Source of the DNA: Styela clava
Taxonomy: Eukaryota
Direction: 5' to 3'
DNA: 64,000 bases
Assembly (NCBI RefSeq): GCF_964204865.1
Contig: NC_135258.1
Span: 17,422,001 to 17,486,000, forward strand
Positions 6,424-58,061 of the stretch are shown one piece after another (within the stretch, counting starts at the first letter, position 1; the number at the start of each line of letters is the position of its first letter). The translations under genes and the position numbers were made by a program. The notes beneath the pieces are model-generated. The model searched no databases. It was not told the origin of the DNA and saw only the letters and a program-made list of their open reading frames with translations.

Positions 6424-6435
6424 AAAAAAGGGGGA
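6424..6435 (+). promoter_or_regulatory. Polypurine tract
   Basis: AAAAAAGGGGGA immediately 5' of the 3' LTR. Confidence 0.9.
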
Positions 6436-16426: not shown

Positions 16427-17240
16427 ATGGCAACCTATGTCATATTCGACCTAGAAACTACTGACTTGCGAGATCGAAAAATCACAGAATTTTGTATGTC
16501 TGCCGTTGCGAGATGCCATCTCGATGTCACGGAAAATGTAAATCCATATTCAGTGATACAGGAAAAGATTCGAATATCTGTCGACCCCAAAAGAACTGTC
16601 GAACCAGTAGCAGTAGACCTAACTGACTTAACACGGAAAGATCTCTTGCTACGTCAGAAACTACCGTGGAGTTTGCTCACAAACACACTATCTGCTGATT
16701 TTTTGAAACGGCAGACACAACCATTGTGTATTCTTGCTTTCAATGGAAATAGATTTAACTTCAAGGTGTTGAAAACGCATATAGGTTCTATGCCCGTCGA
16801 GAAATATTTCTCTCGATACTTCAGCGCAGACGTAATGGTTGGAACGAGTCGCCTCTTGATGGAAAAGGGCGTAAAACTAGGGAATAAAAAAATTGGATAC
16901 TATGTTCAAACATTTGGTTGGAGAATGTGAAATCCAGGAGCGTCATTCAACTGAAGAAGATGTAAATGTCATAATAGCATCATTGCAGAGATCGCCAGGG
17001 GATATTCTTCAATGGTTTGATCAATATAAGGTAGCTTTTAACCGTCGCTCTTTAGCACGACCTCAGCTGAAGAAAAATAGGACAGTGGAAAAATGGGATG
17101 AAAAAGAAAACGTCACATCACCTTTAAAAAAAAAAATAAAGAAAATGAGAATGAATTGTCACCTTATTTTGACACGGAGAATTAGAATGACTCGTCATCT
17201 CCAACGTCATAAACACAAGTTACCAATTGATGTTTCTTAA
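16427..17240 (+). pseudogene. Second TREX-like exonuclease copy, frameshifted
   Basis: Highly similar to 1-789; one extra A in the run at 16886-16892; ExoII Asp changed to Asn (RFNF); ExoIII reads HSTEEDV. Confidence 0.85.
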
Positions 17241-22452: not shown

Positions 22453-23765
22453 TATGGTGGCCCATCGTTGTCACGTGTAAAATTTAAAAAAAAAATGAAA
22501 AAATAAAATGAAAAAGCGAAAATAAAAAAATAGTTGTGAAAAAACATAAAAATAATTGAAAAAAAAGAAATAAAAAAAAATTCAAATTAAAAAAAAAAAT
22601 TGAAAAATAAAACAAACAAAAAAATTTAAAAAAAAATTAAAATTAAAAAAAAAAATTAAAAAAAAAAAAAAAATTGAAAAAAAAAATTGGATAAAAAGAA
22701 AATAAAAAGGTTGACAACGATGGTCCGCCTCGTGGCCCATCGTTGTCACGCGTTTTTATTTTTAGAAAATTTGATGCTGCTTGGGACCAACGTTGTCAGA
22801 CTTATTCCTACACGCACAAATGTGTTTCCTGGGTTTCTAACTCACTACTGATTTTCATGACCAATATCCAATAAATTCAACATGAAAATGTTCTACAAAT
22901 TCTCCATGCTACAAGTTCAACCACAAGCAATATATTTATAATAAGGATAAGAGAATATAGAATTGGATACGAAAATTTGTTTTTACGTGCAGAAGGTAAT
23001 TTAATTGGAAAATGCTGCTTAACTGCTCAGACACTCGTGCGATGCCGGTACGGTATCGTCTGACCGTACCGGTACCCATGCAATCACTCGTGAAAGAATG
23101 GGAGATGATGAGTGATTGTATGGCTACCGGTACGATCAGACGCAAAGCGACTATAACCGACTACCGGTATTTGGTAAGACGGTACGGTACCGGCATCGCG
23201 AGTGTCCAGACAACTGAGTAGTTAAGCAGCATTCTCCAAATTACCTTATACACGTAAAAACAAATTTTCCGAATTTTCGTATTCAATTCTATATTCTCTT
23301 ATCATTATTATAAATATATTACTTCTTGTTGAACTTGTAGCATGGAGAATTTATAGAACATTTTCATATTGAATATTGCTCAAGAAAATCAGTAGTGAGT
23401 TTGAAACCCAGGGAACACATTTGTGCGCGTAGGATTATGCCTGACAACGTTGGTCCCAAGCAGAAGCAAATTTTCTAAAAATAAAAACGCGTGACAACGA
23501 TGGGCCACGAGGCGGACCATCGTTGTCAACCTTNNNNNNNNNNNNNNNNNNNNNNNNNNNNNNNNNNNNNNNNNNNNNNNNNNNNNNNNNNNNNNNNNNN
23601 NNNNNNNNNNNNNNNNNNNNNNNNNNNNNNNNNNNNNNNNNNNNNNNNNNNNNNNNNNNNNNNNNNNNNNNNNNNNNNNNNNNNNNNNNNNNTTTATTAT
23701 CGGTTTTTTATTTTATTTTTTATTTTTATTTTCAATTTTACGCGTGACAACGATGGGCCACCATA
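22453..23765. mobile_element. IS3EU-type non-autonomous foldback element, ~1.3-kb palindrome
   Basis: Same TIR as 12000-12363; TSD CATGAG (22447-22452, 23766-23771); arms pair almost to the centre near 23100; N gap in the T-rich arm. Confidence 0.9.
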
Positions 23766-25443
23766 CATGAGATAGTAATAGCGCGCTGGTATTCCATACC
23801 ATGTAAGTTGATCGCAGTGAAATATTTTATGATTGCAAGCAGTCAAGACAAACGAAATGATAAAATGAATGAAACAACGATTCCAAAATAATTACCATAT
23901 TACACAGTGTTTGAACTGAAATTGTGACAGCTATGGAAATCGAAACAATTAAAATCACAATTGGAATTAGGTAGGATATTTATTATGCAAATTGTAGAAT
24001 AACACAAATCTTTTAAAATTTTATCTAGAGATAATTGCGGATGCATATATTTGATATATGTTCTTAGATAGTTCAATTTGAAATTTGTTTCTGACTTTGG
24101 GCTTTGGCATAAACTTTCAGCGCTAGTATTGTTTGAGAATGCCAATATAAGCTAATAAAAAGTGTAGTTCATTTTTAGACTGTATACTTTTATTACCTCC
24201 AGTTGGATGAAACACTAGAAAATTCTACCAGATGTACATCAGTGGACGAAGTGAAATGGATGCGTGACTGAAATACCCATAAATTCAAATTGATTTTCAT
24301 CATTTTGCTAACAGCCATGACTGTCACCTGTAATTTGGAATAACCTAAAAGCATGTCGAACGTCACAAACAAAAGCATCGTTTCTCGTTAATTAATTATT
24401 TAAGTCTGACTTGCAGTCGCCCTAATCAGTTACACAAAGCAGTTGTTCCCCTCTCGCTTCGTTTATTACTTCGACTCAAGACAGATAACGCAAAGAAACA
24501 CCTTACTGAATTAATAATCATTTTCTTTCTCGAAAAAGCACACTTCGTCTGTTCATATTTATATCATAATGTATGAATAGCAACCTTTCAGTTGTAGATT
24601 CATCACTTGGCGCGAAGACAGGTCTCAGAAAGAAGCTAGTGAGGCATATACGCCTGGATGGCTGATATATGATTGCTTTCAGATGGGGTTGAGATTAAAA
24701 GGAATTGTGAACTGCCATTCGTTTTATCTAAAAGTACTATGCTCGTTCGTTAAAATATACTCTATGATATTTTATCACTAGCTCTCGTTCGCTATCATGT
24801 GAAGCTGCGTTTCTTAACGTCCCCTCCGTCACCTCGCGGATTTGAACTTTTTTTTTTAATCGAAATTTTATTCTTTACGTTTTTATTTCATCCGTTCTGT
24901 GGTACTTTATACAGCTCTTGTCAAATCGAATGTATGTTTTCTACCTCATTCAATAGTTGCTTCTTTAAGGAGTTGCATCAGGCTAGTTTGTTACGGAAAC
25001 AATTACGGAATTTAAGGAAAGGTTTGTTAGATAATTGACTCAAAATCTAATAGCAGCTAAGCTGGGAATTAATGGAACCAAATGCATCAAGATTCTTTCT
25101 ACGAAACCCGTGTCAAAATATTGTTCTGATTGTAATACTGGGCTCCAAATATAACAAGAGAAAATATATTTTGTTTTACTTTACAAGGCAATAACTTAAC
25201 TCTCAATAAAATTTTAGCAATGTCGCGCGATATATAACTTCTATTCGTAATACTTAATTCACTTGATTAGTGTGAAAACTAACTTACGTTCATTTTTCAA
25301 GTCCTATTTCAGAAATGTATAATAGTTTTAAACAAAGCCTATAAATATAGCAAATTCCTTGTTTGATAAGTCTGATTGTACAAATAATTTGAAAAAGTCT
25401 ATAACACTTTTTCCGGGTTAATGCGTTATACAGTTATTTCATC

Positions 25444-28400
25444 ATGAAAACAGGTGAGTAATACAATTTTTTTTTTCGATTTTCTGTTAAGAGCATGTGT
25501 TTTTAAAATATTTTTGTCACGTTTCAAATAAATTGAAAATACCCTCTTCGTGCTATTCAGATTCATTCAATATTTTCCCAAACTCTCATTACCTATAAAA
25601 TGTCTGCGTCTGTGAGTCTCGATATACTAGATGAAAATATGCACAAAATTTTTGGTATGTGATTAAAAGTGCCACCCGGTTATTATCTTATCTTGTTTTC
25701 GAAAATTAATATCGATAATTTGGCTTCAATCATAGGAAATATTTTTCCTTCATGAATTATTCTGTGATAACAAAACTGTTTGATTTCTAAAAAATACATT
25801 CATTATGCGACGTGTAAAATCACAATTGATTATGTGCTCATGTCAGTGTTGTGAACCTTCATAATTGGTTGTTCTTAAGTGACGAACAACTGCAAAATAT
25901 TTTTTCAGATCGGAGATTCAAGTATTTAATGAAAATTATTAGGATTGTGACTTTAATCATGTCCTGTGCAGTATTGAAATCAGTATTTGCTGCCTCGTCA
26001 GTGGAAAAATGTCGACAGAATAGTTCAGACACAAAATTTGCAAACAATGGGTAAGATTTGAAATATTATTTTTGTTACATATTTGTTATTTTTGAATCGA
26101 AGTGTCTGTGGATTGGAATTGTAAGAAACCAATTCTATTTCAAGTTATCGTGTATACACGGTTATCATTTGCTACATAGATGATGTTCTAGATAATATTA
26201 ATAAATTGAATGCAATTGTATGATTGTACAGGAATCACGCTAATTGTTGAGTCTGATGTTGAAAACTTATTCCATGCACCATGCTAAAAATAAATTGTTG
26301 GGCATATATGTAATTTTTATCGTATCAAATAGAAATTATGGCTCTTTTAATTTATTTTTTGGCTTCACAAAGTTTACAGACCAGACATTCCAAAATGGCT
26401 GACATTTAGAGGTGTTTGTCTAAGATGCCAAGATGGCTTCTTATATTATACAAATAAAAAATTTAATCTGAGAATGAAAAAATAGGTTTAAAACGAAATT
26501 AACTGTAACTTATATTTCACTACTAAAAAATTATCGTTTTTGTTTTATCATCCTTGGCGCCTTATGCGTTATAGGCGATCATATAAGTTATTTCATACCA
26601 GAAACATTTTGGCCTGTAATACTTTCACAAACACATACTAGTTTTCATAAATAATCCACTAACGATTTTTTCAAATATTCCGAATTTGAGATTATGTACG
26701 CAGAGGAGGAAATCGGCTTGTTTGAATCCGTGTGATTTTGTGTTTTTGTCGCGACGAATCGAATTCACTAATATCCTATCTCCAGAAGCAAGGTTTGTTA
26801 TAAGCCACACAATCGGGATGTATTTACATATTATAATGTCGCACGAGAAGTAGTTAAGTTTAATATTTGATGATTGTTTGTTTGTTTGTCCGTTTTTATC
26901 CGATGATTAGCCGGAAAACTAATCCCCACATCCATTGCTGTTTTGCTGTATAAAGATTGTTAATGAATGAAGTTAGAGGACGGAAAAAATACAGATTAGA
27001 AAAATCATATTATAGGGATTCCTGCAATCGAAGCATTTTAGTTTGTTCAAATTTTTTACACAATTATCACCTAAAGTTTACGTTATCCCATGAAAATTTA
27101 TACTTATCCGCGAATAAAACATGCAAATAGCAAATTTTCTTATTGTGCCATAGTTACTGTATTGCATTTTCCCCGGGAATTTGTGTGAAATGTAACAATT
27201 TAAGAGTATTACCTCTTATATGGTCAATGTTGAAGCAATGTGTTTTGAAAAAGTATTTTGAGCTGCGTGTCGAGTAATTGCACCCAAGAAAGCATTGATC
27301 TGATGTAGCTGAATCTAGAATTTAAATTATGGATAAGACTACTTGATGTATGACTATAAACGAGGTGTCATCAAACAACAGCGCATAATTTCAATCGTTA
27401 TATTAGCAATTTTTGCCAAATATAACCGCCGTACATGTTTTTGCTGACGCAATGAGTTGTCATGACACAATTCATTATGAATTCAACAGAAGACAAGATG
27501 TAAACAAATTTAGGGAACACTAACATTAGTGCCAAATCCATTTGTGTTTGATTTAAATAAGTTGAAGTCAAAAGTTTTTGTGGCTTAACTAGGAAAATTC
27601 CCTTTTCAAAATTCTTTTGTCATCAGAATACAAACATAAAGATTTATTAACATGAACATATCTACATTAAAATCGGTGTTGTTTTGTTTTTTGTCAGACA
27701 GTAGTTGCAAACCGTGAATTTTTAATAAAGTTTATAGATTCAAATTCTGTTCTGTTTAAAAATAAAATATTTTATTCCATCTTGTTAGTAATAGAATAAA
27801 ACCCAAACACATTATTTCTCATAGATTATCCATTCTGATTTTTTTTAAACGCATCTATATAATTGAGTAAATTTTGAATACCTCATCGCTCCCAAGATCG
27901 ACTGTTTAGGACTTTCCTACCAGATAGGAAGTGATAACGATAGTGCTTTCATTTTATCAAATGAGTCACAGGGCGCCAGATATGAGTGAGAGGAATAATT
28001 CAGATCCGTAAAACTGATGCATATTGCCAGGGTTCGTGACCCCACTTTCGACAGAAACATGCCGCTCTTCACACAAAATCTATACTTTAATTTTTTATTT
28101 CATTGCTCAATCAATCTACATTGTACTATTTTTTTCATTATTGCATTACCAGATACGAAGGACTTGTAGTTGTGGTTGGAGACGACATAGAACAAGACTA
28201 CAGTCTAATAGAAGACTTGCGCAAACTAATAACCGCAACTTCCGAAAAAATGTTTCAAGTTACCAAGTAAGAACACGAAAAAGCTTTTTCCGTATCCGCC
28301 ATTTTAGTTCATTCACTTCACGTTCATGGTTCAATGTTAGATATTCTGATCTACGGCATTTAAGGGTATTTTATAACCCAAGAAAAGTAAATTATATGAA

Positions 28401-31400
28401 TATTTTATATAAATTAGCTTTCTTTTTATTAAAGATGATATCAGTGCATGGATACTAGCGTATATTCACAAACATAACGTGGGGATCTATATAAAGTTAT
28501 GGCTGATACAGATAACAAAGCTATGTCAAAACTATTATTTGAGACTAGGGCCTGAAGCGAATTAGCATCTCTAATCGTACTGTTGAAACATTTTTTGAAT
28601 ATTTTCACAGGCGTCGAGCATATATTCGACAAGTTTCTGTTTTGTTACCTCGATCGTGGGGTGTTCCTCCAAAAGAATTTGAGAATATCATGAGTGTCAA
28701 AACTGACACAGTTCATACAGTGGATAGAGGAGATTTTAGGCTACGCAATCGATCTCCGAGGTAAATCAATGATATAATCAATCATGAGTCAGCTGCTGAA
28801 ATCTTCTCTCATTTGAGGTGTTTTCCAAAGAATTGATTCAAATTAAATTATTTAAATCAGAAAATTACAACTCCCTTTTTTACAATCACATGTCTTATTT
28901 TTGATGAACGAGTCAAATATTGTTATTGCAATAAATTCAAATATTTAGGCAAATTAAATAGTTTGAATAACATTGTACTATATGCCAATTCAGCCACGAA
29001 GGAAAATGATTGTCAATTTCAATAAAATTTAGTTGAATTATATTCAAATGCAGGTCAGATAATGAAGACATTTCTTGGCAACTGGGCGATGAGGAGGCAC
29101 AAGTTGACATGCCATATGTTATCAAACCGACACCATGTGGATACTCAGGTCGATATCTCCGATTGACCCCAGAATTTGTGAGGTTTGGCGGAAAGGCATC
29201 GGAAATGGGCAAGATGGGATCGCCCGAAAAAATCTTAGTCAGACAATGGGCTAAATTACGTTGGGGAGTGTATGATGAAATTCCTCTCGACGACTCAGAG
29301 TCGAACTTTTATAGACACACCGACTTAGAGGTTCATCCGATTGCTTGCTCGGCTGCTATTACAGGTTAGTTTGAAATACATCATATTGACTCATTATGAG
29401 GTTGATTTAAATAACTGTCTTCGAAAAGAACATGTACTTGTCGTTGCCGTGTTTAAAGAGTCGTTAATAGTACTGGATAAAATACTTTATGGGTTATAAC
29501 GTAGGAGTAATTATTGAGAAAATGACTCCAGCACAGATCTAACGACAACAGCAATCGTCGTTAATTACACATAACTACGCAAATTTCGCCATGCCATGTG
29601 AAATGCATACATGCTACTTTGAAATGCAATTATCCCTCGCTATTCCCCTTTGTCTGTCTCTTTGTAGTGACCAAAACAACGCTGATACGATTATCGTGTA
29701 GGTAACCCTATGTTTCGCGGAACCACCTTTTGGTGTGACACTGTTTGAACCATATTCGTCGTGAATCTGGTTTATTATTGGTAAATAAAAGTGGATATCA
29801 CCACGGAAACACACCTATATCTTGCAAATCAGATGCAAGGACTTTTAGCTATATAAATTATGTATATGTTTAAGGGCCGATACGAATTACACAAACTTTG
29901 TCTGCAAGTAAATATTCCGGATGGACGAAATATAACACTTTTGATGCTACATCAACATGCACAATACAATTTTTTCATATCACTCATGTAAAACAAAAAC
30001 GGTTCATTTTATCGCCAATCGAGTAGAATCTAACAAAATATTTTTACAATTTTCTCCAATTGCAGGAAATGAGCCAAAAAGTGGCTAATTATTCGAAAAA
30101 CCACAAATATAAGAAATTTATTTTAATTATTAAAGCACTTCACTGCAATGTAGTCGGGTAACTTATCATTATATAAGGAAAACAATTTTGAAGAATATTT
30201 TCAATAAGCAATATACTTAATTTCCGGGTTAAAACTCATTATAAACGTTCAATAACTCGTTTCTAATGATTACAAATTTATTTTTAATCTAATGAATTTA
30301 AAAATATTAATCATTTCAGTTTGGAAGATATTTTAGAAAAGTAATACATATAATGGTTTCACTAGTTTACCTCAAAACGAAAATTAGTTTTTTATGTTTC
30401 AAAATGAAAAATTGCCAGCTGGCATAAATATTTTAGCGTTTGTTCCATGTTGCAATTTAACGAAAACGACATCAGACTTTTAAGATATGGACCCGACAAC
30501 ATATTTCTGTGCGAAAGAAATTAATATTTAATTACGTTTCAGGTAAAATAATAAAATCGGACAATCCGGAAGTACCGTGTAGTAAAGAGGAAGCTCTTGT
30601 AAACAAGAATTGTACATTTAAGCCTGACTCTACGCCGTCGAAGACTGTAACTTCCAGAAAAACTTCTTTTGATGAAACCGTCGGAATTACAGGATTCGCC
30701 TCATTAATGTACAGGTACAAGAAATATAGCTGCGTGGGAAGTGTACTAAATAAAAGTCGATATTAAATCGTAATGACTACATTATGCAATAATGTTATCT
30801 CAACTATTTTCTCGGTAAATCAGGATGTGTAACTGCGCAAATGTTGATACCATAAGTATTATTTTGTGTGAATTTCACATTTCACACAAAATTTTGTTTA
30901 CAGTGCATGAGTTGGCCTAGTATGGCACTGATATAGACTTTGTTGACATCGCAGGTTCTAAGTTCAATTCCCATGCCCACGTTATCGTCCAGTGGTGTAA
31001 TAAATTAAGCACCAGCATTCGATGCTTTTAAAAAGGGCTTGTTTGGGGTGACAGGCGTATGAAACGTCGTAAATAATATAATGCGTTTAGTCGATACGAT
31101 ATATATTTTCTATTTCAGTCCTGATTTGAGTTACGTCGATCATTTCTGTGACACTGTAGAAGAATCAGAACAAGAAGTGCCCGAAGAACAACAGCATAAT
31201 GCAGAAGCACCCACGTTACATAATTTGCATTGTCAAGGTAGGCTAAGATACTTTGTTTTATTTCGCCTATGCAACGGACCTGGTGTTTGGTTTAGTGTGC
31301 GTCAATTTGTTCCTGATAGAGTTCAAACCGAATTTTCTTCAAACCCTCCTGATGGAAATTAGAACTTATCAGCTTTCTTGAAGCGTTCCTGAGTCGTAGT

Positions 31401-34400
31401 AAAAGCTGATCCGAACCAACAGTCTGTGCTAATTTTTTTTTATCAATTTATGCTTTTTACAGGAAAAAGTGTATGGGAAGTAATAAGAACTCATCCAGAC
31501 TTTGCGAACGGAAATAACCCCCCACTTCCAGAAAGTTCTATTCCTCCACCGATTGAATTCAGCCTATTAAAAAATCCGGACAGGTACTGAAATAAAAAAT
31601 TCAAAAATACCACGGAGTTCTGCTTTGGTCTCATTTTGAATCCAAATTGAAAACTAACACAGACAATACAAATATTTCTCAAAGCGCGTTGGGCTGTACG
31701 GGTTACTTCATCAAAAGCAATTCGTGCCTATTTACTATAAATGTTCAAATTTATATTTCAAACTATAGACGTATGGCTGCCTGATTTTGATTTGTATCGG
31801 TGGGAAACTTATTTGCTCGATGTTAATTTAAATTTTTTTAAATTAAACTAACTGTAACATAAATTCGAATAAATGTCAGAAAGTTTCGACCATACAGATA
31901 AAATAAGTTTATTTATCTAAAGTTAATTAATAAAATGTATTCTGCCAACAATTTATTTATACACCAATTCTAAACGTATTATGATGATCAGCAATATAAA
32001 AACGTATATACTCACGTTTATGTAGAGTAAAAACTGTTAGTATCCGGTATTTTAATTATGATTTTTTGTGTCATTTCTAGGAGGATTGTTCTCGTTCTCG
32101 ACATTTCGTCCAGTATGAAGTTTTTCAATCGAATGAAATTGATGAGACAAGCAGCAAGTCAATTCATTGATACCGTACCGGAAAACTCTTGGATCGGGAT
32201 TGTTACATTTGCAGCGTAAGTTAGTAATGAAATAATAATCAACAACAAATTTTCAATATAGTATGCCATTCGAAAGGTATATCCTTTATAAAGTACACTT
32301 CAAACAATATCAAATTATCTCTTTTAGAGAAGGAACGGTGATGTCAGAACTCATCAGAGTTTCATCAAACGACGTGAGAAGGTTATTAAAAGAACGTCTT
32401 CCCAATTTTCTTGTCCCCGGTGAGTATGCGCGATTAGATATTTTTTAAATTTATTTCTCCAGTATGTGGTTGATGCATTTATGAGTGTATCATTGTTCTA
32501 CATTTATTGTCTAAAAAATTTCAATCATTTCCCGTGTAGAATGTTATAAATGTATTCATAACAGTTCCAATCTCCGTACCAAAAGTAATGAAATTGAAAT
32601 AATGAAATGAAAGTAATTCTTTTATAATATCTAATGTAAAATCTACGACGGCAAATATCTCTTGTTAGGGGCAAAAAAAATTTAGAATCGCGATATTTAA
32701 CAACACTGAAATTAGTAAAAACGCATTACGATTGCGAAAAGACATTCATTACTAAAACGAATAGGCGCTAATTAGATACTGAAATTACCAAAGGGTTTGA
32801 AAAGACTCTAATTCTAAAATAAAACATTATTTACTTGCAGGGACCAGTATCGGTAGCGGTATTAAACTTGCACTGCAAGTTTTAAAATCATCTGGTCCAA
32901 AGCATATGAGAAAATCGGGTGGAAGTATGCTTGTTTTGAGTGATGGAAAAGAACACAACAGTCCAAAGATCAATGACACATTGTTGGAAGTAAAAAAAAT
33001 TATTATCTCCTAGTACAGAAAAATACAAACTCCTTGCATGGTTTATAATACGAAGGATGTATCTTTAATTTAATGTACAATAAATTTTTAAATCTGCTGC
33101 TAATTGTCATCGTTTTTGAAATATTTAATTTTATAATCCAGGTTATTGATTTTGGAGTTCGCGTTACAACAATTGCTTTTGGTGCACAAGTAGCAGACGA
33201 TTTGGATGTTTTAGCCGAAGTGACTGGAGGTTCTGCATATTTTGCGAGCTCAGGGGAGTTTAGCGACAATAGTGAGTTACGTGATGCATTCCTGGCAACG
33301 ATTGACAATCCAGAAGGTAAACTCCCAGCAAAAATTCTTTATGCAGATTGATTTTGAGCGATTATCTTAGTACAATCAATTCATATGAAGATATTGAGTA
33401 CAGGCGACGCATTTTTAAAAAATATATGATATATTACAAAAAATAAAATAATGGCAAGTGAAAAAACTCTAAGTCGTATGAGATCATTAGCGTATCTGGA
33501 GTTTATACACTTATCGTATATTTTCAGGTGTCGCTGGTAAATATCGAAATCATTAGATATATAATGGATGCAGGCTCAAAATTAATTTTATAAAGTAAAA
33601 TAATAATATATTAATGTGCAATATATAGTAACCTAGTGTCCCAGTTCATAGCTAAATTTATTTTAAATTTACCAAGAGTTCAAAAAAAAACTAGTTGTTC
33701 AATCTAATTAGCTTTAGAATTTATTTGCAGATGACATGGTTGTTGTTTCAAGTCAGTCGATACGATTGAAAGCTAATTCGTCCGAAGGTCACACTTTCAT
33801 TATAGATGAAACAATCGGAAGAGAAACTAGGATTACAGTGCTTTACACCGACACCGTAGCACCTAAGGTAAATAGTAGAAATGGTGATGAAAAATGAATT
33901 GTGAATTTCACAATTACTAGTCTTTGCTACTTTCTATACCAAGTTTCACCCAGAACAAGGCCATGTGCAAGTATACACTGCCACATAAGAGGCTACTATT
34001 TTTTATTGAAGTGTCGTAATTTTTACGGTTCAGGATTATCTTTTCAATTTATTACACTCTGGGCGAAGTGTTATCCATGGTTCATTTTAACAGTTTTGTC
34101 CGACAAAGAAGAGATTCGTTTCTGTGATATTAAGCATGCATACGAATATTCAAATTCAATCTTTCTCCAAAGTATATTTTTACTTATTTATTACCATTTG
34201 TGAGAAATTATTATTTTTAATCTAAAAAGGAAGTTACTATATATTATAATGATGAATATTTTAAGATCGGACTGGAAAATCCTTGGGGTGATGTAATGTG
34301 GGAAGACGATGATATGTTTGATACGAACATTACAGCTGAGTTTTCTTCAGATGAAAATTTTTCAACAAAGACCATTCAATACTTTGGATACATGGAGGTA

Positions 34401-37400
34401 AAATATAGTTCGCAGTCAAAATAATAAATAATAATAGTGAACATTTTATTAAAAATTAGATTTTGCTAAATCTGCCTTATATAATCCCTGTTATTTGACT
34501 CCTTTTTTTCTTGTTCAACTAAAATTCTTTGAAAGCGTTGTGTTTTGTGCATTTACACTGCAACTAAACTTATTTTGGTAAGAAAAATTTTAAGTAATTA
34601 CTATTTACCTCACTCCATATAAATTTAATTTGGTCGAATTGAATTCTTAATCACGTACTTAACTAAACCTTCGAATAATATTCATAAACGTAGTAATTTC
34701 AACTCTTATATCATTGTATTAAAAACGAATGAGTATCTGGCAAAATTCTCAATCAATTACTTTTTGGTATATCCGTAACAAAATAACCGAAAAAATTGTC
34801 GTAGAGCGAAGTATACTTATTCAGTGTCGAGAGATAATTAAATTTGTGGATGAAATTTGAGTTTACCAAAAAGGAAGTAGAAATATATTTTGTGGGGAAT
34901 ACCTAGCATTTTAAATATTCCACATGTCAAACACGGTCACTGTTTTCAATTGGTTTAGTGCATTTCATTAATAATTTTCGTGTTTGAGTGCTGAACCGCA
35001 TGAAATTTTAATGCCTGTGCTATCTAAGCACAAATCCTATACAACAAGAATGATTTTAGTCATACATTATTTGTTTTCAAATGTACATGTAAAATATTCA
35101 TGAACAAAAATTAATGAGAAACAAAATTTAATACAAAAACAATCATTAAAAAAAGCAACAATAGTGAAGCACGGATATTTATATTTTAGCCTGGAACGTG
35201 GACGCTTCTGTTGAAAAACCAGAGGTTGCAAAACAGTGTTACTGCTGACATCTCGGTTTTCTCCCATCCCGCAGAAGAACAGGAAAGTTTGGTTCTCTCA
35301 CCAGCATTACTTTGTAGGATAATAAATTACAGTGGAAGCGAAAGCATTGTCATTTATGCACATCTGAGTTATGGTAATCCATTAAATTAATTGTAATAAA
35401 CTTTTGCTTCATGTTACGTTATTGAGGTCAGTTTGCAATGCTGTTTTTTTATTCATCGAAAACGAAAACTACCATCCTGTAGCATTATTAGCTGACGTAG
35501 CCGTTACTTTCTACTGTCAGCTAAACAGTTAGTTTGGCAGTTTTTAGTGCTGTCAGTTATTTGCTATTGTCTTCAATTATATGTTGTTCATTTACACAAT
35601 TAGTTTTGGTATCGGTGGATCAACTCACAAACTGAAAGAGCAAAATATTTTACCTGTTGAATCGGTTCTTATCACTCTTATTGCTTTTATTAGAAAACTC
35701 CCCGGACTGTACTGTGCCAAGCAAGCATGCGCCAAAGTTTTATTTGTGCCTCAATTGTTCTCACCATTTTTCAGGTGAGTTTGCTGTTCTCGATGCAACA
35801 GTGGAAGCTGTTGTGACTCGGCCTTTATCACTGTCTGGCAGTTATGATACGGCCACCGTTGAATTGAAGGACGATGGTCGTGGTGCTGATGTTATTGCAA
35901 ATGATGGAATATATTCAGGATATTTTACTAGATTCACATTGCAAGGAAGATACAACGTCAAGGTAACTTTAAACATTGAGTACATTGTCCACCATAAATA
36001 ATCTGTTAATCTTATTATATTACGTTGTAATCATACTGCAGCAATCGTCCCTCGCATTTTAACCCCAGTAAGACTCACGCGCAGAAGATGTTTTCCCAAG
36101 CAACTCATTCTCGTGATTTGTAGGATACCCATCGCATAGCACTTTTATACATATGACAGTATCTTTTTGGATTATTTTGTAATCAAAATGTCATTCATGT
36201 GCATGTGGCTAATCTACAAATTGTTTTACAACCTGGATTTGTCAACGCAGTTGAGCGTAGTCACTAATCAAAGTCCATCCAGGCTTGCTATGTTTTTGAT
36301 ATAATTCTCTCTGATCTCAGTGCCAATTGTAATTATCTTTTTTATTTTTGGATTAAAGGTTAATGCCGCCGGAGACGGAGATAAGGCGCGACTTGACATT
36401 AATCATATTCTTGGTCTGGGACGTCGTAAAAATGACTTGGTCAAAGTTGATACAAAAGATGTTTTACAAAATATGGGGAACAAAGAAGAGAATAAGTATG
36501 TCTACGATTATATGCGTGAATCACTGAATTCAGTCTTATTCTGAAATGCATCATTTGGTCTCTCTATTTATGTATCTTAATAATTAAATTATTTTTTCAC
36601 CAAAAGACGGAAATCCAGAAAACGACGCTCAATCAGAGGAATAACGAGTAGGATGGGAAAACTGAAAGCTTTCAAACGATGGAGCACACAACAGAAAGAA
36701 TTCATCGTAAATGACACAACTGCTGTAGTTTGTCCAGATGGGTAAGATTTATACTAATTCGAACTAAGATTTTGGGACCGTACAAACATTTGAAATTATT
36801 TATCAAACAAAAAAGCAAAACTTATTGCTTTATATTTTGAATGAATCGGATATCGAGACGGTGCCTTGTGAGACTATAGAAGAGTCCCACCCAATCTGTG
36901 GCGCATACCTAGAGGGAAATTGCCAAATCAAACATTTCTCGCAAATTAATATTTGCATTGCGTATAATAAGTTGATATTTCTGTAAAATGGGAGAAATTG
37001 ACTGTATGTTATTCTATCGGACAAAGAAGCAAATCGTCCCTAGAATTATTTTTGTATTATTTCGGTGCGATACGTATACAAGTTTATCGAATCAATACAA
37101 TAAGCATACATACCGAAGCAGCCATAAAAGTATGGCAACTAACAAGAATACCTTGAAAAAAAAATTACTATTTTATAATATTTAATATATTCAGATATTA
37201 CCACTTTCAAGACAGTTGCTATAAGTTTGTCCGAACTCCAATGGCATCATTCACTGATGCATCGAAATTTTGTGCAAATGACGGCGGATACCTCGCACAC
37301 GTGAATTCAAATCAAGAACTTTTATATATAATGGACACCATTGGAAAAAAAGATACATGGTTCGGAGGAATTCATCAAGTGGGTTATAACTTATAAAACA

Positions 37401-40400
37401 ACAAAGTAATTTTCGTATTTTTATGCATATATTTATCTTTTATCCTTCATACTTTTATTCACTTCTACAGTCGCTGAACAGAGATGACATATCAGTTGAG
37501 TTTGTAACAAAACGCATTAAAAGAGGACACGAAGATGAAGATCTAGTTGTATTGGCAAATTTATTCAACGAAATTTACCTCAATGAAGATACCAGAAAAA
37601 TAATTGAATCATTTGAACCAGATTTAGCTGGATTAAGCAGAAAAGAGATTAACAAGTATGGAAAGAAGTGAAAGTAACTTTTATCAATAACATTTTCAAA
37701 TTACAATCAAAGTAAAATAATGTTGTCGACGCATCAGTGGTAAACTCGCAGATTCAAAATATCAGTTACAATCCCTATTTACACCCCATTATCAGGATGT
37801 AATAAATTGAGTAAGCTACTCTTAACAGGAAACATCAAAGTCCTTCCACAAAAAGTAACTCCCTGAATATTAGTGTTTAGTTTTTGTATGTAGCCTTTTT
37901 CAGATCATACGTGGTCCAAATGGCTCAGTAGTAGTAATTTCCAATTTTTTCTGTCATTTTTATCAATTCTTAGATTTATAATGCTATGCGCTCGACTTAT
38001 ATAGTTTATTTATACATTTAAAGGATTATTCGAGTACTGGGAGGAACATCAGAATCTGACATTCCTTTACTGAAAGAAGCAAAATTACTGAGACTACAAA
38101 ATGTCCAAGATATGTTGACGACAGCAAGTATGCGCACTCGTACTACACAACACATGACAACAGTGAGGATACATACTATTTAAGATTGCTAATTAAACTG
38201 ACAAAACTGACTGACCTTCAATTTTTGAATTAAATGGAATATTCCAATTTCAAACATTGACCTTTTACACTATGAATGTCCCTGGGTTTCTCAGACTTTC
38301 GTTATCCGTGGCCTTCGGAAGACTCTCGAGACATGTGGCCGCATGTTTTTCTATAAAAATCAGTCGTTCTATGTGCTACATTCAATAATACGAAAACAAA
38401 ACAGGTTAACGCGAATGAATAAATGCATTACAATAAAAGAATCAACGTGAACTGCCTTCAAATTAACGAAGTTAGTGTAAATATTACCTAGTGAACAACT
38501 TTGCTAGTGGCACCCAAATAACCACTCCGTGCTTATGCTTATAATGTAACAGAGGAGCTGAATATGTATTACAACTTGAACTGTCATGAAAAATGCTTTT
38601 TACTTTATCTAATATAACGTCAGGAATAATATTGGCTATCATAAAATATATATTTATATATATATACATATTAGAGCTACATTTTGGTGTTAATATTTTG
38701 CTATTTTTCTGACACCGTTCACCAGACAAATCACAGCCACATTCACTTTGTTGTCTGCGGGGAATTTAACTATATTCTGCGTTTAGACTGTAAGTTCGAG
38801 GAATCGACGACAAGCTGGAACTCCACCATCATCAAGTGGTGATTCTAGCGAACCATCAACAGGCGTATTTACAACGATAGCAACATCCACTGAAAATGCA
38901 ACACTCGCACTTGCAAAGAAATACCCAGATGTAATTAATTTTAGTTGATGAAAACTTTTTTATTTTTAAATGAATTGCTAGTGGTATTTTTTTATCAAAA
39001 AAACTCAATTATATTATTTACTGTATGTCTTGTTTGTATGTTCATTCGTAACTATTGCTGAGATGAACAATAATTTTGAAACAGATGAATGAAAACACGG
39101 AGTGTGTTACTTGAAATGCACACCGCTGTAATTCAAATCGAACGAATAAAAATACCAACAACTTTATCACTAAAAACTCATTGAATTTAGCAAAAAGACT
39201 ACTTTGGAAGTGGAGAACAGGATCCAGAATGCTCATGGTTTAACGATGGTAAAGTAGTTGAAACGTCAGGCGATGAAGTTTGCAACAGGGACAAGGCTTT
39301 CTTTTGTGAAAGACCAAGTATGAATATGAAAATATAAATGGTTTATTGTATTATATTGACTTGTTTGATGCATAACACATCAACCAAACTAAAAAACATT
39401 TATGAAACAGCGGCTTGGTGGGTTATCCATATCTCAGCACATGCTTTGCTCAATTATTGCGAACAAATATACTTTATTAAAACAATATTAAATCTTAGAG
39501 AGTATGAAGCTAATTCACAAAGAAAATCTCGATAACTTCAAAGCAAAAAATGCATGCGAAGGCAGCACTCACACAATATACGGATATGGGTTGAATTGCT
39601 CATAAAAGTTTTAACTCAAACAATTGTTCTTCTTCATTGCAGCATTCGCATGTTTTCGTATGTGTAATATTTAATTTAAGACTTTGAGAAGTTGAACGGT
39701 TTATTCCAAGATAAGAAATTATATATATATTTGGGTTGTCCATTCGCAGTTTAGAAAAAGAAACCAACCAAATCTTTATCATTCCAGAGATCGATCTTTT
39801 TGAACCTTCACGCATCACTGATTTGAAAGTCAAAGTTACTGAAGATCTCAATATTGTTCGACTTGTATGGACGGCCACAGGCGATGACAAGACTAATGGA
39901 AGAGGTACGTTATAATATATTTTTGTAATCTAATTTTGACCATTGGGAGACCAGTTGCCAATTTCAATCTTGAACTAAACGATATAATGAAGTATCAAGA
40001 TGAAGCCACCATTTTACTCCATTAGTAGCAAGTTTAATGACCTTAGTCAACAACGGTTCTAGGAAAATTCGCCGTAGGAAATCTTCCCGCAGAAAATTTC
40101 GCCGCATAGGAAAAATCGCAAGGGTATTTTTCTGTAAAACAAGTATTTGTGATAAAAACAGTTTTTAAAGTATCTTTTTATTAAAAAAGATTCGTTATTT
40201 AAAAGCATACCGTAACCCTGCGGCGAAATTTTCTGCGGCGAATTTTACGGGCACAGGCAACAACAGCTAGATTAACCTAAAGCATGCATTAGAAATGTTA
40301 GTCCCGTTTCACTTTCACCTGTATAGAATACAGCTATTTCTAAATCTCGAAGCAGATTGTCGTGTGATTTAAAATGCGGAACAAGTATAGATATGTAATT

Positions 40401-43400
40401 CTGTCAACATTCTTCTTCTTTACATTCAGCGAAAGAATATGAAATACGCAATCTTAGAACGAAGCGAGCTCGAAAGCTTGCAAGGAATTTCAAAGACGGT
40501 GAATTATTGAGCTTCGCTGCAATATTAAATGGAAGTGTCGATGTTGCCAAAATCTCGGGAGAACGTGAAGAATTAGTCGTCAATTTAACAGAAATTACAG
40601 GTTGGACTTTTTTTTATATCGAGATGGGAAATTTAAATTCTATAATGTTTTGTTTAATTGTAATTTAATTTATTCGATAACAAAAAAATGGAAGTATGAA
40701 AGAGATTTTCATCGAAAACACATATGATCAACTCAGAAATCCGAAGCTTTGTTTGTCTTTAATATATTTCTAACGTAAAGGTGACGCATTACTTTTAAAT
40801 TTTTTTTTTTTACAAATATTTGACACACATTAGGAATTTCAAATTGAAAAATCATTAATGTCGATAAAGCAAAAGTTAAATTTTTTTCTCCCAATCAGGT
40901 TGCCCACCACATGCTGCACTGGACCTAATAATTCTCCTACCTCGCCGAATACTTTCTCCGAGTTCCACATCACGAATCGAAAAAGAATCAACTTTGGATT
41001 TATTCAGAACTTTATTTTCCATCTTCAAAATCAGTAAGTAAAGACTCAAACTAAGACTTGCACCTACCATGATTATTAAGCCTAAGACAGTAAACCCCAT
41101 GAATGTGAAAATTTCTACACTTGAAAAATATCTTCGGGCTGAACCTCGTCCAACTCAGATTGATTTCTTTTACTTGAGCTTTTTGCTTTAAGTGAATTTA
41201 ATGGGAATTAATAAATAATTTGTCCGACAGGTACATATGAAGTACAAGTGAGCGTTGTTGCTATACAAGATCAACTTGGGAGAGTTCTTCTGCGTGATTC
41301 TACTAGTGCCAATGAAGTTCTGAACAGTATTAGGCAGGGATTAGAACAAGACAACAGACTCAGACAGGAAGTCAGATACCGTAAGTAAAAACATATATAT
41401 TGCTATGAACAAAGCCGTAATATACCAACGAGTGAAGCACATGTTTTTGTGCTTTACCGTAACTAAAGATCGTTCATTGTTTCCATTCGATATACTTTCT
41501 AAATATCTAACCCTGTTTACCCTTCTGAATATCTAACCTTGTTTCCATTCGATATACTTTCTAAGTATCTAACCCAGTCTATCTTTTTAAATATCTAACC
41601 CTGTTTATTTCAGATGACACTGTAAAAATATTAGAAGATATGAAATCAAGGGGAAGATCGATCACACCAAAAATTTTATTATCTATATTGACGGAAGAAG
41701 ATATGGAAGAGTTGATAACATATGAAAACACCACTGATATGTTCAAAATTATCGTTGGTGTTGGAATTGCAAATGAAAGGTAATTTTTGTACATCTGCAA
41801 TGATAATTTTAATCATTTTTAGGTTTGCAGTGTAATAAATTGCGCAAGAATTACAGTCAAAGCTAAATGTACTTGATGAAGTTATTTAGAGTCGGTTTTG
41901 CCGGTGAGTGATGTTAGTTAATCCAGCGACCGCACAAGCAGTCACGAACACCTTGCGCGACATGACATGACGTTCTGCGGAGCAATGTGGAGAGATTTCG
42001 AAAATCAATTTAACAAGGGGAGGAATTGGTGCATATATGACTCAAATTAAAATATTGAGATAATTCTTTATACAGTATCCACCATAGGTAACTGATCTCT
42101 TGTATGTTTGTTCCATTTTAAAACTGCAGTGCTGCGTTTAGTTCATCAACTTGCGCCATTTTCATTGTGTTGATTCCTTCATCTATAAGCCAAGCAATTA
42201 GAAAATCGAAATCAGTATTTTTATTCTTTTGATTTACAGCTGCTGTTTTGAGTTGGTAGGTAAAATATTTATTTTTCAACAGTGACGTTCGCGCCGTAGT
42301 TTCAGATCCGCCATGTGAAAATGCAATATTTGCTTCAACGTGGAAAAACTTGAATGAAACGTATCGTGAAGTCGCATCTCAGCTGTGTTATGCAAGAAAT
42401 GATGAATATCAGGTCAGATCCTATCGAAATTAAAAAACAATTTTTTTAATGAAAGTAGTAATAATAACTTCTCATTAAAGAATTTTATAAATAATTATAA
42501 CGGATAAATTGCTAAGAACAGCACATATCAATACTGTTACTAATAATCTATTACGAGAATTATCTGGAATCAAATATACTTGCTAGGATTTTATTCAAAA
42601 TTTTCAATCATGTCGCATCTGATTTGTTGTAGGGCAAAAATCTGACACTATTAGAAAAGTTGTTTCCGTATTTTCAGGCTTGGGGCATTGTTGCTGTTGA
42701 CGAAGGAGGTTTACGCAGTGAGCCTAGCAATATTGTATCAAACATAATTCACAACCATCGGAAATTGGTTGATTGTCCACCAGAGCCAGAATTAGTAAGT
42801 ATATTCGAAATAATAATTTTAGATTTAGCTAACACTTGTGACACTCAGACAACTATGGTATCAGTCATGCTTTTCAACGCCCATCTCTATCGTTACAGCC
42901 TCAACCCAGCGTTGCAGGAATCGATGTTACAGTCGTAACCATTGCAATTACAATACCTCTTGCTGCCATTCTTGGTATCGTTGGCGCAGTTATATGCTTT
43001 GGTCAAGTGAAAAAATACAGAAAAAAGAAGAGAGAAAAAAAGGAGAGAAAGGAACGTGAAGCGGAAGAAGCGGTTAGTTACTTTAAATTTCTTCTTTTCA
43101 AATATCAATAAACATAAGCATATAAAAACTTCGATAGTAGAAAAATCTAGCGCAGTAAAATTACGTTAAATTTCCAATCTACACCGCTTAATATCCCTTA
43201 CTATTTCTAATAAGAATTGAACTGGAAACTGAATTCCCACAACGAATTATAATATATTTCAGTATAAGTGGCACTAATGTGTATATCCCCATTAAATGAA
43301 CAATAACATAATTTACCTTCCGTACACGATTTGCTTATGTTTTCATGTCTGCTTGGAGATTTTGTCATGTTATTGTATATATATATAAATACCCACAGGC

Positions 43401-44158
43401 TGCAGAAGCAAAAAGAGCCGAAGCAATCAAAAATGCAGGGTAAGTCCACCGTTTTTGTGTCCGAGTTCTGCCGTTTCGATAACTTAAATAATAAAAAGAT
43501 ACAGAGTCTCCTGTTTTGTTTTTTTTTTGTTTCCATTATCCCCGAGTTTTGCCCTTAACCTCATTTAGGACTTGAAATTTCGACCACTGAAAATAAAAAT
43601 AAAGATTGACCACACCACTGGGGGTTATGCATTACATCAATGGATGCCATAGGCTTTGTCTCAGTCAAACTGCAACCTTACTGCTTAATTTCAAAATAAA
43701 AAATATCATATTCACCGCTACAAATCGAAACATCGAATCGTCTATAAACATGGCGTATAAACTACACCCATAAAAAAATGCGTGTGAGATTTGTCTTGAG
43801 GATTTTCGACTGTAATCAGAACAATTGACCTATAAATCTATATATAATATATATATTATGTCTGTTAAAATTGGTGTTGTAATAAATTTTAAAGATATAA
43901 AGGTGAAGGAAAAAATTTATGATTCGTTCTGCACGATCAATTTCGCATCAGCAACAACAATCCAGCAAAACGCATTTTGTGCCCAAATATTGAGGCAATG
44001 TAATGCTGTATTATGGCTTCTCAAAAACTTCTATTTTTTCTAGGATCCGTGGGAACGTTCGCGCCAACATGGTCGGTTTGTTACAAAATGTTCGGCGAAA
44101 TTCAAACCTGAAGCTGAAGATCAACAAAACAGCACCAGTGACGCAGCCACCAGTTTAA
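25444..44158 (+). CDS. CLCA: CLCA-family protein, ~33 exons; membrane-anchored pseudoprotease with extra CTLD and VWA domains
   Basis: Exon starts (approx.): 25444, 25909, 28153, 28611, 29054, 30543, 31119, 31463, 32081, 32328, 32841, 33142, 33731, 34266, 35190, 35775, 36359, 36607, 37195, 37471, 38024, 38787, 39191, 39755, 40430, 40899, 41231, 41615, 42282, 42679, 42899, 43399, 44044. Motifs: signal peptide, NGYEGLVV, LRWGVYDE, ASLMY, HNAEAPTLHNLHC, VLVLDISSSM (MIDAS), LKDDGRGADVIANDGIYSGYF, PSRITDL..WTATGDD, AVDEGGLRSEPSNI, TM helix at ~42930-43003, TAA at 44156-44158. Confidence 0.9.
30905..31070 (+). mobile_element. Probable tRNA-derived SINE remnant (intronic)
   Basis: A-box-like TGGCCTAGTATGG and B-box-like GTTCAATTCC at tRNA-like spacing; no cloverleaf recognisable. 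Confidence 0.4.
40054..40257. mobile_element. Small intronic MITE
   Basis: Repeated GAAAATT(T)CGCCG at the left, inverted CGGCGAA(A)TTTT at the right; flanked by CAACAA on both sides. Confidence 0.6.
41478..41607. repeat. Intronic minisatellite with ATATCTAACCC core, about 4 variable units
   Basis: TGTTTCCATTCGATATACTTTCTAA.TATCTAACCC occurs twice, with two shorter units. Confidence 0.7.
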
Positions 44159-44822
44159 ATTACACTCATGAAGACTTTACTTATAGACAAGTCAAAAGGT
44201 GTCACACCGCCCCACATTAAGTGCAAACATGCGACTTCCGCTCCACACTAACTATACTAACTATAAAAAACATTCATACGCGTCTACTTGGCATTTACAT
44301 TATGCACCACTGTGCTACATACATGCGCTATTACATATTGTTAGTTAAAACCATGCTGAGAATTCCAATATGGCGCACATACCTCGAGGGGTTGCAGTCA
44401 CAGTATGACCTGGACACCGATTTGGGTAACATTAACGTCGCATAGTATTGTTACAAGCCAACAAGAATGACTACAGCTGACAACTGAATCAATGAAGTGT
44501 TTTCGTTCCTCTGACGTGGTGGTTCGTATTCGCTTCCCGTAATATCCTGCTTGGTCTTGGCGATGCAAGTACACTAAGAACCGTAGTCACACGGCACACC
44601 CACCATTCAACCTTTTTCAATATACGAATTGCATTTATTGTATATTTTTCATTTATCGAAATTTTTCTTATCAAATGAATAAATTTATCTGCCTGTGAGA
44701 GATGTGATTGTCTGTCATATATGTATGTAACGTACTGAATACAAAAAGAATACTCAAATAAATTATAATAATACAACAGAGGAACACAATGCCCAAAACA
44801 AAAATTATTAGTCTGAATTCTT

Positions 44823-50071
<5,249 letters not shown>

Positions 50072-51682
50072 CGTGGCGAACGATGGATTTCAAATGGTTC
50101 TTTCTTCAATGTTTGTTTACATTTTCTTTTGTTTGTCATTGTAATTGTCTGTTTGTCAAAAGTAGTTATCACAGATTACTTCGTTGTTGGTAAACAAATC
50201 AGCTCCAAGACACAGATAATATATTGTTTTACAACTAACTAACGAGATTGTGCAACGTTTCATTTTAAGATCTATATAACTGCCTATCCCGTCGGACAAC
50301 AAATATTTTCTATTTTCCTCTCAAACAAAAACGAGACAAAACTCAAGACTGTCCAAATTCAGTGGATAATTTAGTGAAATTTTATATCAAGATTTGCATG
50401 ACTAATCCAATGTCTTAATAAATAGAATTTCTGGAGGCAAATAAGTAATTTTATATATATTCGTACAAATAATTTATTATTTGACGATAGAAATTAATTT
50501 GAAACTGATTACTAATTATGCCGTGCGTTGAATAACACATTGAGTGAAACAATAATCTTATCTGTAAACCTTAAATATTATTCGGGCATCATAATATGTT
50601 GAATACAGCCCTACTAATTGGTTATCCACGCCCCTAATGGGTGTTAACATTGGCTGCAGTCTCAAATTTATCGCGTACTCAAAATGCGCACCATTTTACA
50701 AGTGCAACCAACAGAGCACAGAAACCTAATTCGTCCTTAAAACTTAATTGAACTCTATCAAAGCATAAATCCACTCGATTATGTAGCTTACATACAAAAT
50801 GTATGAGGTTTCCTGTTGTATGTGGGAGAGTATCAAATGGTCCATTACGTATATCCACAAACTAACATTTAAATTCAGATGTGATCAGAAATTCAATGAC
50901 AATAAGCATATACGCCAATTAATTATTTTATGTCTTTGATTGTTTCATTAGCAATATCCTTTTAAGAATAGGTGCACGTCACCTCGATTAATCTTGCGGT
51001 GCGACCTTCTTGCCCGGGGGCATTTTTACGATTAGAAGACTGGTTTTTCATGTGTTCTTATGACGCCTCGAGAGTTCCATTGAATACCGGTTTTAGTTGA
51101 GTGAGTAGAATGATTTACAGCATACAGTAGCAAAGTAGATGTTTAGTTGCCAGTGTTGTAAAAACGAAATGTGCGTAGTCAAACAAATTGTTCTTGTTAT
51201 TTTGTTTTTTATATGAATTATGTTTTGATTGTATTTTTGAGTCGTCATACTTAAAGTTATTTAGGCTTCTAGAAAACTTAACTTATAATATTAACCCTGC
51301 GACAGACAATGTGGATATAAATCTAAATCGAACAGCTCGTCGACTTCGCTTTTTATCTAAGGCTGTAATAAGTGTATTTTACACAATGTAGAAAAGTGAG
51401 TGAAATATATAATGCAAGAGGTGAACTAGGAGCGATGGGTACAAATTATGTGCAATGTTGCACTTATTAGCATGCAAGATTGTCTGTACTTTGATTTAGG
51501 CATATCTGGAATCATTGATTCACTGGAATATATTTCATCGACGAAAGCGGTGCTAAATTTACATGGTAGAAAGCAAGGAATCAGTTTGTCGATAAATTAC
51601 AAGATGATTTATATATATACAATTCAACATTATACAGGGATCTACAGCTTAAAATTTAAGTAGTTTAATCACCCGCATATCA

Positions 51683-57600: not shown

Positions 57601-58061
57601 GCTTCTGAACTAAGTTCGGATGACCGCGCTCGCAGTCAAGACGATTCTAATATATACAGGTAATAAAACTAAAATACTAGTATTACATTTATCTATCTTT
57701 TACATTGTAACTTTATGTGCAAAGTGCATTTTTTTGCAGTCGACCACGTAGTACCAGCATAGATGATACAATATCTCTGGGTTCGCGGAATATCTTGTTC
57801 GGTAAAAATGGACTCGAAAGCGGACCCTCAGAGGCACACACTGCAGTGTCAATGCCGCGTTCGACCGCCTCTAGTGGAAAGTCTGTCAAAAGTGCAAGCT
57901 TCAGAACTCCCGTAGAAGAGAAAAAGAAAACATCTGACGAGTCTTCCAGCTCAAGTGACGACGATGATGAAGATAAAGCAAATTCTTCCTTAAAAGTAAT
58001 AAAGTCAAAAAATGAAGATAGTGAAGTTGATGAAAGTACCATTAGAGCATACAGAGGATGA
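51683..58061 (+). CDS. BTB-BACK-Kelch (KLHL-family) protein with a long low-complexity C-terminal tail
   Basis: ATG at 51683; BTB (LCDVTL..FPAHKNILASCSPY), BACK (SELELFEAARQWL, IHFPLI) and six Kelch repeats (VGG, LYVLGG, LYALGG, VYISGG, LVTGG, IYL|VGG); TGA at 58059-58061. Resembles the KLHL9/13/26/36 group; ortholog not assignable. Confidence 0.9.

Follow-up and report, generated by a model that had tools for sequence, protein, structure and literature searches.

A catalytically dead ascidian CLCA with a predicted split C-type lectin domain and three conserved furin-type sites

We describe a CLCA-derived gene on the + strand of a 64,000-nucleotide (nt) stretch of the Styela clava genome (contig NC_135258.1, positions 17,422,001 to 17,486,000; hereafter the window, whose numbering is used below). 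The gene (25444..44158; 33 exons, 1565 amino acids, aa) encodes a membrane protein whose protease domain lacks its catalytic motif and which carries a C-type lectin domain (CTLD) divided by an insert. Proprotein convertases probably mature this dead ascidian CLCA at three furin-type sites; the product would be a three-chain membrane complex with a predicted two-chain lectin fold, and an internal piece, here called piece C, would probably be freed. The sequence itself, the dead motif, the aligned sites, the invariant cysteines, the transmembrane helix and the splicing are directly supported by the data below.

The gene model, assembled from exon ends by coordinate, forms one open frame with GT-AG borders at 32 of 32 introns. 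A search with insert exon 1 matched Styela clava LOC120339079, whose current version, XP_039263070.2 (also P0003), is identical to the model; earlier RefSeq versions gave two separate pieces of 832 aa and 818 aa. This gene is annotated only as ‘uncharacterized’, and no mention of its identifiers was found in the open-access full-text literature, supplements with possible gene lists aside. A search with the region aa 770–1170 found no orthologue, its sole match being one unrelated FnIII protein. Exons 1–2 (25444..26050, +) hold the start and a hydrophobic, signal-peptide-like stretch (aa ~13–31; hydropathy peak at aa 13–14) with a presumed cleavage point. The domain order is then CLCA_N, vWA1, BSR, ID, CTLD N-half, insert, CTLD C-half, FnIII-like domain, transmembrane helix and charged tail. 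From 36495 to 39788, every exon was joined, with GT..AG at all joints, in contigs of all four RNA-type runs, a label that is inferred rather than on record for these four runs of a single study. The three exons that an earlier note on this DNA had placed inside the lectin domain are thus joined in these contigs. The interval 35389–40035 was unspliced throughout in the DNA-type run X5. Skipping exons 20–22 would preserve the frame (phase 0-0), and no joint of this kind is among the 15 of 37 joints listed. Runs X9–X11, from two further studies, gave no spliced contig of the gene, which says nothing about its expression.

The CLCA_N metallohydrolase-like domain (28153..31583, +; exons 3–8; Pfam aa 46–356, the first residues lying in exon 2) matches PF08434 with E 1.3e-42, and the orthologues do so with E<=3e-46. 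At the position of HEXXH, the Styela protein has RQWAK (aa 203–207; 29244..29258, +), Ciona and Clavelina have REWAK and loci L040/L041 have AEWAK; the ten further CLCA loci read in the Styela genome all keep it intact, as HEW[AG]H. In CLCA1, zinc is bound by H156, H160 and D167, with E157 as the base (10.1101/2025.10.18.683246). Among these four positions, only the Asp is retained in the Styela gene (D214, at 29277), and the Met of the Met-turn is gone in the Ciona and Clavelina proteins. Judged by these residues, with both zinc-binding histidines gone, the protein is a catalytically dead protease, and self-cleavage in the ID loop is expected to be lost because the HEXXH motif is gone. A dead CLCA motif is not new by itself, since substituted CLCA active sites have already been described, with about five independent losses (PMC3650047). 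The remainder of the CLCA layout is in place. Domain vWA1 (32081..33316, +) matches PF00092 (E 1.6e-15) and the CLCA1 vWA structure 6pyo (E 7.6e-22), and its DxSxS, the metal-ion-dependent adhesion site (MIDAS), is kept in all four aligned rows. BSR, ID up to beta6 and the beginning of the beta6-beta7 loop follow (33731..36495, +), placed by alignment to canonical CLCAs and named after the CLCA1 cryo-EM preprint, and an FnIII-like domain lies further downstream.

The same layout was found in Ciona (P0010, P0160; LOC100182654) and Clavelina (P0161; LOC143459166), at 39–41% identity; with Styela added, all three orders of ascidians are covered. In a tree of 15 CLCAs, from which the Styela paralogues were left out, the three ascidian proteins formed one clade (100/100). 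Further relatives are the fragments P0002, P0083 and P0122 and loci L040/L041; a metagenome scan gave two loci from 77 candidates, both stopping ahead of the CTLD. The marine fragment P0122, possibly from a more distant tunicate lineage, spans a Thr-rich tract, the CTLD C-half, FnIII and the start of the second vWA domain at 25–32% identity. Among the Styela paralogues, none of 18 stretches fetched at CLCA loci had a CTLD or insert match at E<=0.05. The ID-to-FnIII distance was 0.5–2.9 kb at the nine paralogue loci where both flanking exons were found, versus 3.8 kb here. At least 10 intact Styela CLCA paralogues exist (on C9, C17 and C19; L002–L039), clustered on C9 and C19, and EF-hand family matches lie between two CLCA loci at C19:12.010–12.017 Mb.

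Three furin-type sites occupy identical alignment columns in the three orders. Site 1 is RKRR|S in Styela (aa 827–830; 36617..36628, +), RKRR or RERR|S in Ciona and RKRR|S in Clavelina, so that three of four rows read RKRR|S and the fourth RERR|S. Site 2 is RIKR|G (aa 944), RARR|G and RQRR|D, respectively, and is present also in fragments P0002 and P0083. Site 3 is RNRR|Q (aa 1042), RKKR|Q and RNKR|Q; Gln directly follows it in all four rows, which would suit pyroglutamate capping after a cut. The full-length proteins P0010, P0160 and P0161 contain no R-x-[KR]-R motif besides these three. The ectodomains of Styela, Ciona and Clavelina have 4, 3 and 3 such motifs, more than expected by chance: shuffled ectodomains averaged 0.68, 0.50 and 0.34 motifs, and only 10, 30 and 3 per 2000 attained the real count. 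Invariance is 40–80% in the site columns versus 5–22% in their flanks. The sites thus show the features of convertase substrates (R-x-[KR]-R, lumenal and conserved). The Styela genome has 11 P-domain convertase matches, and L042 (1–2334) contains an intron-free kexin-type proprotein convertase frame of at least 777 codons, which we take to be PC7-like.

The position of site 1 links it to the biology of the family. CLCA1 cuts itself at G694|A695 in the ID beta6-beta7 extension, and its products remain together mainly because beta7 of the C-terminal product completes the sandwich (10.1101/2025.10.18.683246). By alignment to orthologues and, via bird CLCA1, to canonical CLCAs, site 1 lies in this same extension, ~15 residues ahead of the beta7 equivalent, F-x-R-x-S (aa 845–849; 36671..36685, +). 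This stretch aligns with the FxRxxS strand of canonical CLCAs and, by the role known from CLCA1, is predicted to hold chain B to chain A of the complex proposed below; the CTLD sits downstream of it. We considered F-x-R-x-S as the ancestral scissile bond and rejected it, as the CLCA1 cut is G694|A695 and the strand S729-R730-T731 is beta7 (10.1101/2025.10.18.683246). The earlier note had proposed that cuts at RIKR (37513–37524) and RNRR (38799–38810) leave a two-chain lectin. Both motifs stand at those coordinates and are aligned in Ciona and Clavelina, but the third conserved site, RKRR|S, had been overlooked, as had the dead catalytic motif and the nested second vWA domain. Because of that third site and the catalytically dead protease, cleavage is predicted to yield three chains in a complex tethered to the membrane, more than a two-chain lectin alone.

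Of the two halves of the lectin domain, the first is well supported by sequence and the second weakly. The N-half (36731..37378, +; exons 18–19, aa 865–929) begins with C865 at 36731, is split by an intron and runs to WFGG at 37358–37369 (WFKR in Ciona). It contains the beta1-alpha1-alpha2-beta2 part of a CTLD with its WIGL-like motif, scores 23.6 bits against PF00059 (cut-off 22.6) and reaches 99% in hhalign. The C-half (39191..39317, +) has its cysteines at 39230 (C1099), 39281 (C1116) and 39305 (C1124), in long-form CTLD order and ending in F-x-C-E. All six cysteines (C865, C876, C894, C1099, C1116, C1124) are invariant in the four rows, a match to the long-form pattern in which the bonds are predicted. 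The two halves, aa 858–947 and 1080–1132, were given to ESMFold2 without an alignment, and their pairing was 0.62, versus 0.02 for the best of three controls. Contact agreement between runs was at least 95%, partner pLDDT was 65, and C894-C1124 was among the tightest contacts. In the calibration of this mark, which is microbial, 51 solved complexes out of 78 passed, as did 2 mismatched pairs out of 108. A two-chain CTLD is therefore a prediction of the modelling. The spacing from WxG to C3 is 173–197 aa, versus 33–46 aa in canonical CTLDs (29 domains of 16 proteins). The replaced long loop and the lack of EPN, QPD and WND anywhere in aa 860–1130 of the four sequences, as the earlier note had observed in Styela, argue against Ca2+-dependent sugar binding. 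A search of ESM Atlas with the Ciona region gave only lectin leads below 0.9. A lectin-like open reading frame at 60651–60932 was considered as the CTLD donor and showed no detectable link (E 0.11).

The insert comprises exons of 185 nt (37471..37655, +), 139 nt (38024..38162, +) and 144 nt (38787..38930, +), which come to 468 nt and 156 aa rather than the 429 nt and 143 aa first reported. According to the spliced contigs, the alignment and the AlphaFold2 (AF2) model, exon 1 holds site 2 and the start of a conserved helical piece, exon 2 the end of the helical core and a Thr-rich tail, and exon 3 site 3 and a Ser/Thr-rich linker. A Ser/Thr-rich stretch had been noted after RNRR; it lies on either side of that motif, with 45% S+T across aa 1022–1076. 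The piece between sites 2 and 3, piece C (aa 948–1045), is 98 aa in Styela, 84 aa in Ciona and 78 aa in Clavelina, so the ~80 aa expected earlier is too short for Styela. It contains zero Cys. Its core (aa 949–1004) has 16 of 56 columns invariant over the three orders (29%), including hydrophobic positions; the CTLD halves have 33% and 31%, the flanks of the core 5–14% and the piece C tail 5%. On these alignments piece C is not a plain spacer, because its core matches the CTLD halves in conservation, unlike its flanks. The earlier note's comparison with proinsulin thus holds for topology only: in contrast to insulin C-peptide, a poorly conserved spacer, the piece has a conserved core.

Modelled alone by AF2, piece C had helices at low confidence (pLDDT 56, pTM 0.28), and this model had no match at Z>=5 among 48,161 chains, a result uninformative either way. 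A search of ESM Atlas with piece C gave no usable match, and a guessed SAM-like fold found no backing in the profile, Pfam or structure searches. A PDB profile search ranked calmodulin first, with E 0.3 for the best single stretch. Alignment by hhalign to 16 Styela EF-hand motifs, a target picked post hoc, reached 24%, and 0 of 60 column shuffles scored as high. An EF-hand has a 12-residue loop with conserved Ca ligands; the piece C loop is one residue short, with one Asp alone invariant, and Pfam EF-hand gave no match in piece C. The likeness to EF-hands is a lead only.

We infer the following maturation, in which cleavage, the association of chains A and B, release and function are steps of the proposal. 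Cut 1 would open the ID beta6-beta7 loop, the loop that CLCA1 cuts by itself, at a non-homologous bond ~15 residues before beta7. Chain A (aa ~32–830, 89 kDa) would carry the dead protease, vWA1, BSR and ID, and would be retained by strand beta7 from chain B, as the C-terminal product retains its partner in CLCA1. Chain B (831–947, 13 kDa; C865, C876, C894) would be joined to chain D by a predicted C894-C1124 disulfide. Chain D (1046–1565, 58 kDa plus glycan) would comprise the CTLD C-half, FnIII with the nested second vWA domain (vWA2), the transmembrane helix and the tail. Chain B would thus be a two-sided clasp, with strand complementation securing A and the disulfide securing D. Cuts 2 and 3 would excise piece C (11 kDa) from the long-loop position; its loss would uncap a compact, non-sugar-binding CTLD, free piece C as a ligand, or both. 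The ectodomain would stay on the membrane, whose single predicted helix (aa ~1467–1491; 42929..43003, +; hydropathy and AF2) is followed by a basic/charged cytosolic tail. Piece C, the sole piece without Cys and without an anchor, would alone be able to leave. From its domains, the mature complex is most likely an adhesion or matrix/mucus-binding receptor acting through vWA1 (MIDAS intact), vWA2 and the CTLD, and not a protease.

Several points weigh against this proposal. The named species number three. In an ID-loop comparison of 22 CLCA proteins, in 7 of which the segment could not be delimited, a chiton CLCA with an intact HEWAH has RDRR in its ID loop. P0171, at least, is a dead crustacean CLCA without the site-1-like motif, and Oratosquilla (VEWAK) has none. 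By this comparison, the idea that furin took the place of self-cleavage does not hold generally, because the motif occurs in the active chiton CLCA and is missing from a dead crustacean one. CLCA2 is cleavable in trans, a dead mutant being cut by the wild type (PMC10669480). O-glycans in the Ser/Thr-rich tract could mask site 3. The CTLD C-half alone scores 3–7 bits and reaches 61% in hhalign across 12 columns. Removing the insert before a HMMER search, as had been suggested, gained only 1.6–2.8 bits over the N-half, equalled by 5–30 of 200 shuffles, and was not decisive. An AF2 model of aa 824–1565 from an 8-row alignment left the CTLD unfolded, with pLDDT <50 there. The idea that the halves form one CTLD is therefore backed by the ESMFold2 prediction, with C894 opposite C1124, but not by a confident AF2 model, and the ESMFold2 pass may itself reflect memory of solved CTLDs, its calibration being microbial. 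As a separate observation, Penaeus CLCA (MEWAK, dead) has RTRR in its ID loop; the chiton and Penaeus proteins (P0162, P0165) together suggest that convertases may process CLCAs more widely among invertebrates.

The main rival, which we hold to be unlikely, accepts all three cuts, but piece C would then remain on the lectin as a fourth, non-covalently bound chain or as a cap that can come off, until a trigger acts; complement C4 and Notch S1 offer analogous maturation cleavages. A core as conserved as the CTLD halves, with invariant hydrophobic positions, is what one would expect of an interface, and the poor folding of piece C alone points the same way. A secreted ligand would be expected to be conserved just as well, however, and piece C has no Cys as a tether. 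A more far-reaching version of release is similarly doubtful: the protein would be a membrane prohormone made from a dead protease. Its conserved helical loop peptide, possibly a relic EF-hand, would be excised by furin as a so far unrecognized ascidian signalling or regulatory peptide, with the two-chain lectin switched on and furin replacing self-cleavage.

It is quite improbable that the protein remains a single uncut chain, its basic motifs being kept for anionic-glycan binding or masked and its insert forming a large long-loop subdomain. Site 3 is flanked by Ser/Thr-rich sequence, and the fourth Styela motif, RTKR (aa 1176), is not conserved, so such motifs can appear by chance; yet the P4 and P1 Arg are kept at all three sites over three orders while the flanks diverge, and Ciona and Clavelina have no other such motif. 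We give very little credence to a cut of the ID loop in trans by active paralogues, with the gene as substrate or decoy and furin acting at sites 2 and 3 only. The cleaved CLCA2 mutant, the 10 intact Styela paralogue loci and the motif in the active chiton CLCA speak for it; trans cleavage amounted to merely 1.5–6% (PMC10669480), and three rows have the optimal RKRR|S at site 1, the remaining one RERR|S. Equally remote is a protein in which the N-half alone derives from a CTLD and a C-terminal three-Cys module folds separately: the weak C-half scores and the unfolded AF2 region favour it, but it is opposed by 3 + 3 invariant Cys in long-form order with a terminal F-x-C-E, by the ESMFold2 pass and by the mapping of the C-half to profile positions ~96–127, with a score attained by 0–3 of 200 shuffles.

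The FnIII-like domain (39788..42794, +) was recognized by alignment to canonical CLCAs on either side of the vWA domain nested in it. This second domain, vWA2 (40600..42397, +; aa ~1224–1412, ~190 residues), matches vWF A1 in Foldseek (E 8e-8). AF2 gave it an alpha/beta Rossmann pattern in a low-confidence model (pLDDT 42 overall), and PF00092 matches two stretches each of the Ciona and Clavelina proteins. The model and the orthologue matches together indicate a vWA fold; the MIDAS DxSxS is lacking. High-copy short intronic repeats at 40050–40250 and 47760–47990 are very deep in the DNA-type run, with many loose ends.

Elsewhere in the window, a multidomain trypsin-like protease gene (LDLa, TSP1, trypsin; 44696–50308, −), spliced in X9/X10, lies tail-to-tail with the CLCA-derived gene. 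Contigs of the last CLCA exon run to 44800 or beyond, overlapping the 3' end of this neighbour, so that the two genes have convergent overlapping 3' ends. A long terminal repeat retrotransposon at ~1600–6600 encodes, across several frames, protease, reverse transcriptase, RNase H and integrase, arranged as in Ty3/gypsy elements; its two ends are alike in sequence. Fragments of a hAT transposase (Dimer_Tnp_hAT, E 4e-10) lie at ~12500–14435, with similar repeat-like flanks near 12000–12360 and 23400–23780. A DEDDh-exonuclease-like reading frame at 16391–17240, in two frames and with a weak RNase_H_2 match, is presumably TREX-like. A BTB-Kelch gene at ~53170–58060 (+) has a C-terminal part that is Met/Gly-rich and Ser/Asp-rich.

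Each ingredient of the proposal has precedents: dead CLCAs, furin-matured multichain proteins and sugar-blind CTLDs. The ascidian protein shares the MH-vWA-BSR-ID-FnIII-(TM, transmembrane) order and vWA MIDAS with vertebrate CLCA1/2/4 (CLCAsin metzincins; 10.1101/2025.10.18.683246, PMC10669480), which cut the ID beta6-beta7 loop that harbours ascidian site 1 and whose products are held by beta7. Unlike them, it has no HEXXH, has lost the Met-turn Met in Ciona and Clavelina, and has a furin-type loop site, a split CTLD between ID and FnIII and a further vWA domain within FnIII. CLCAs with substituted sites (PMC3650047; crustacean xEWAK, tick REWAR) show a similar His-to-Arg/Lys change, but none of those with a delimitable ID-to-FnIII segment (78–103 aa) has a CTLD; the words ‘Ciona’, ‘lectin’ and ‘furin’ are not in the main text of PMC3650047.

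Proinsulin- and relaxin-type precursors drop an internal piece by a double basic-site cut and leave disulfide-linked chains of one fold, as proposed here; the ascidian case differs in two respects: the fold is a CTLD that forms part of a membrane protein, and the piece that would be removed shows conservation in its core. Complement C3/C4, the insulin receptor and Notch S1 are extracellular multichain proteins that furin matures and that disulfides or strand complementation keep together, but their cuts split no C-type lectin fold. Long-form CTLDs without sugar motifs, such as CLEC2D and type II antifreeze protein, both of which were matched, likewise have a six-Cys core and a remodelled long loop. 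Snake-venom two-chain CTL-like proteins consist of chains from two genes that swap loops, in contrast to the one cleaved fold proposed here. Neither the combination nor a CTLD split by an excisable loop was found in the open-access full-text literature, supplements aside.

If the proposal is true, a C-type lectin fold would survive as two chains once its ligand-binding loop is cut out. The protein would also be a natural test of an open question on CLCAs, whether the ID-loop cut matters apart from protease activity, because catalysis is gone here and the site of the cut nevertheless seems to be retained. Convertase maturation predicts three exact neo-N-termini and a 78–98-aa peptide, with Ciona as a tractable model.

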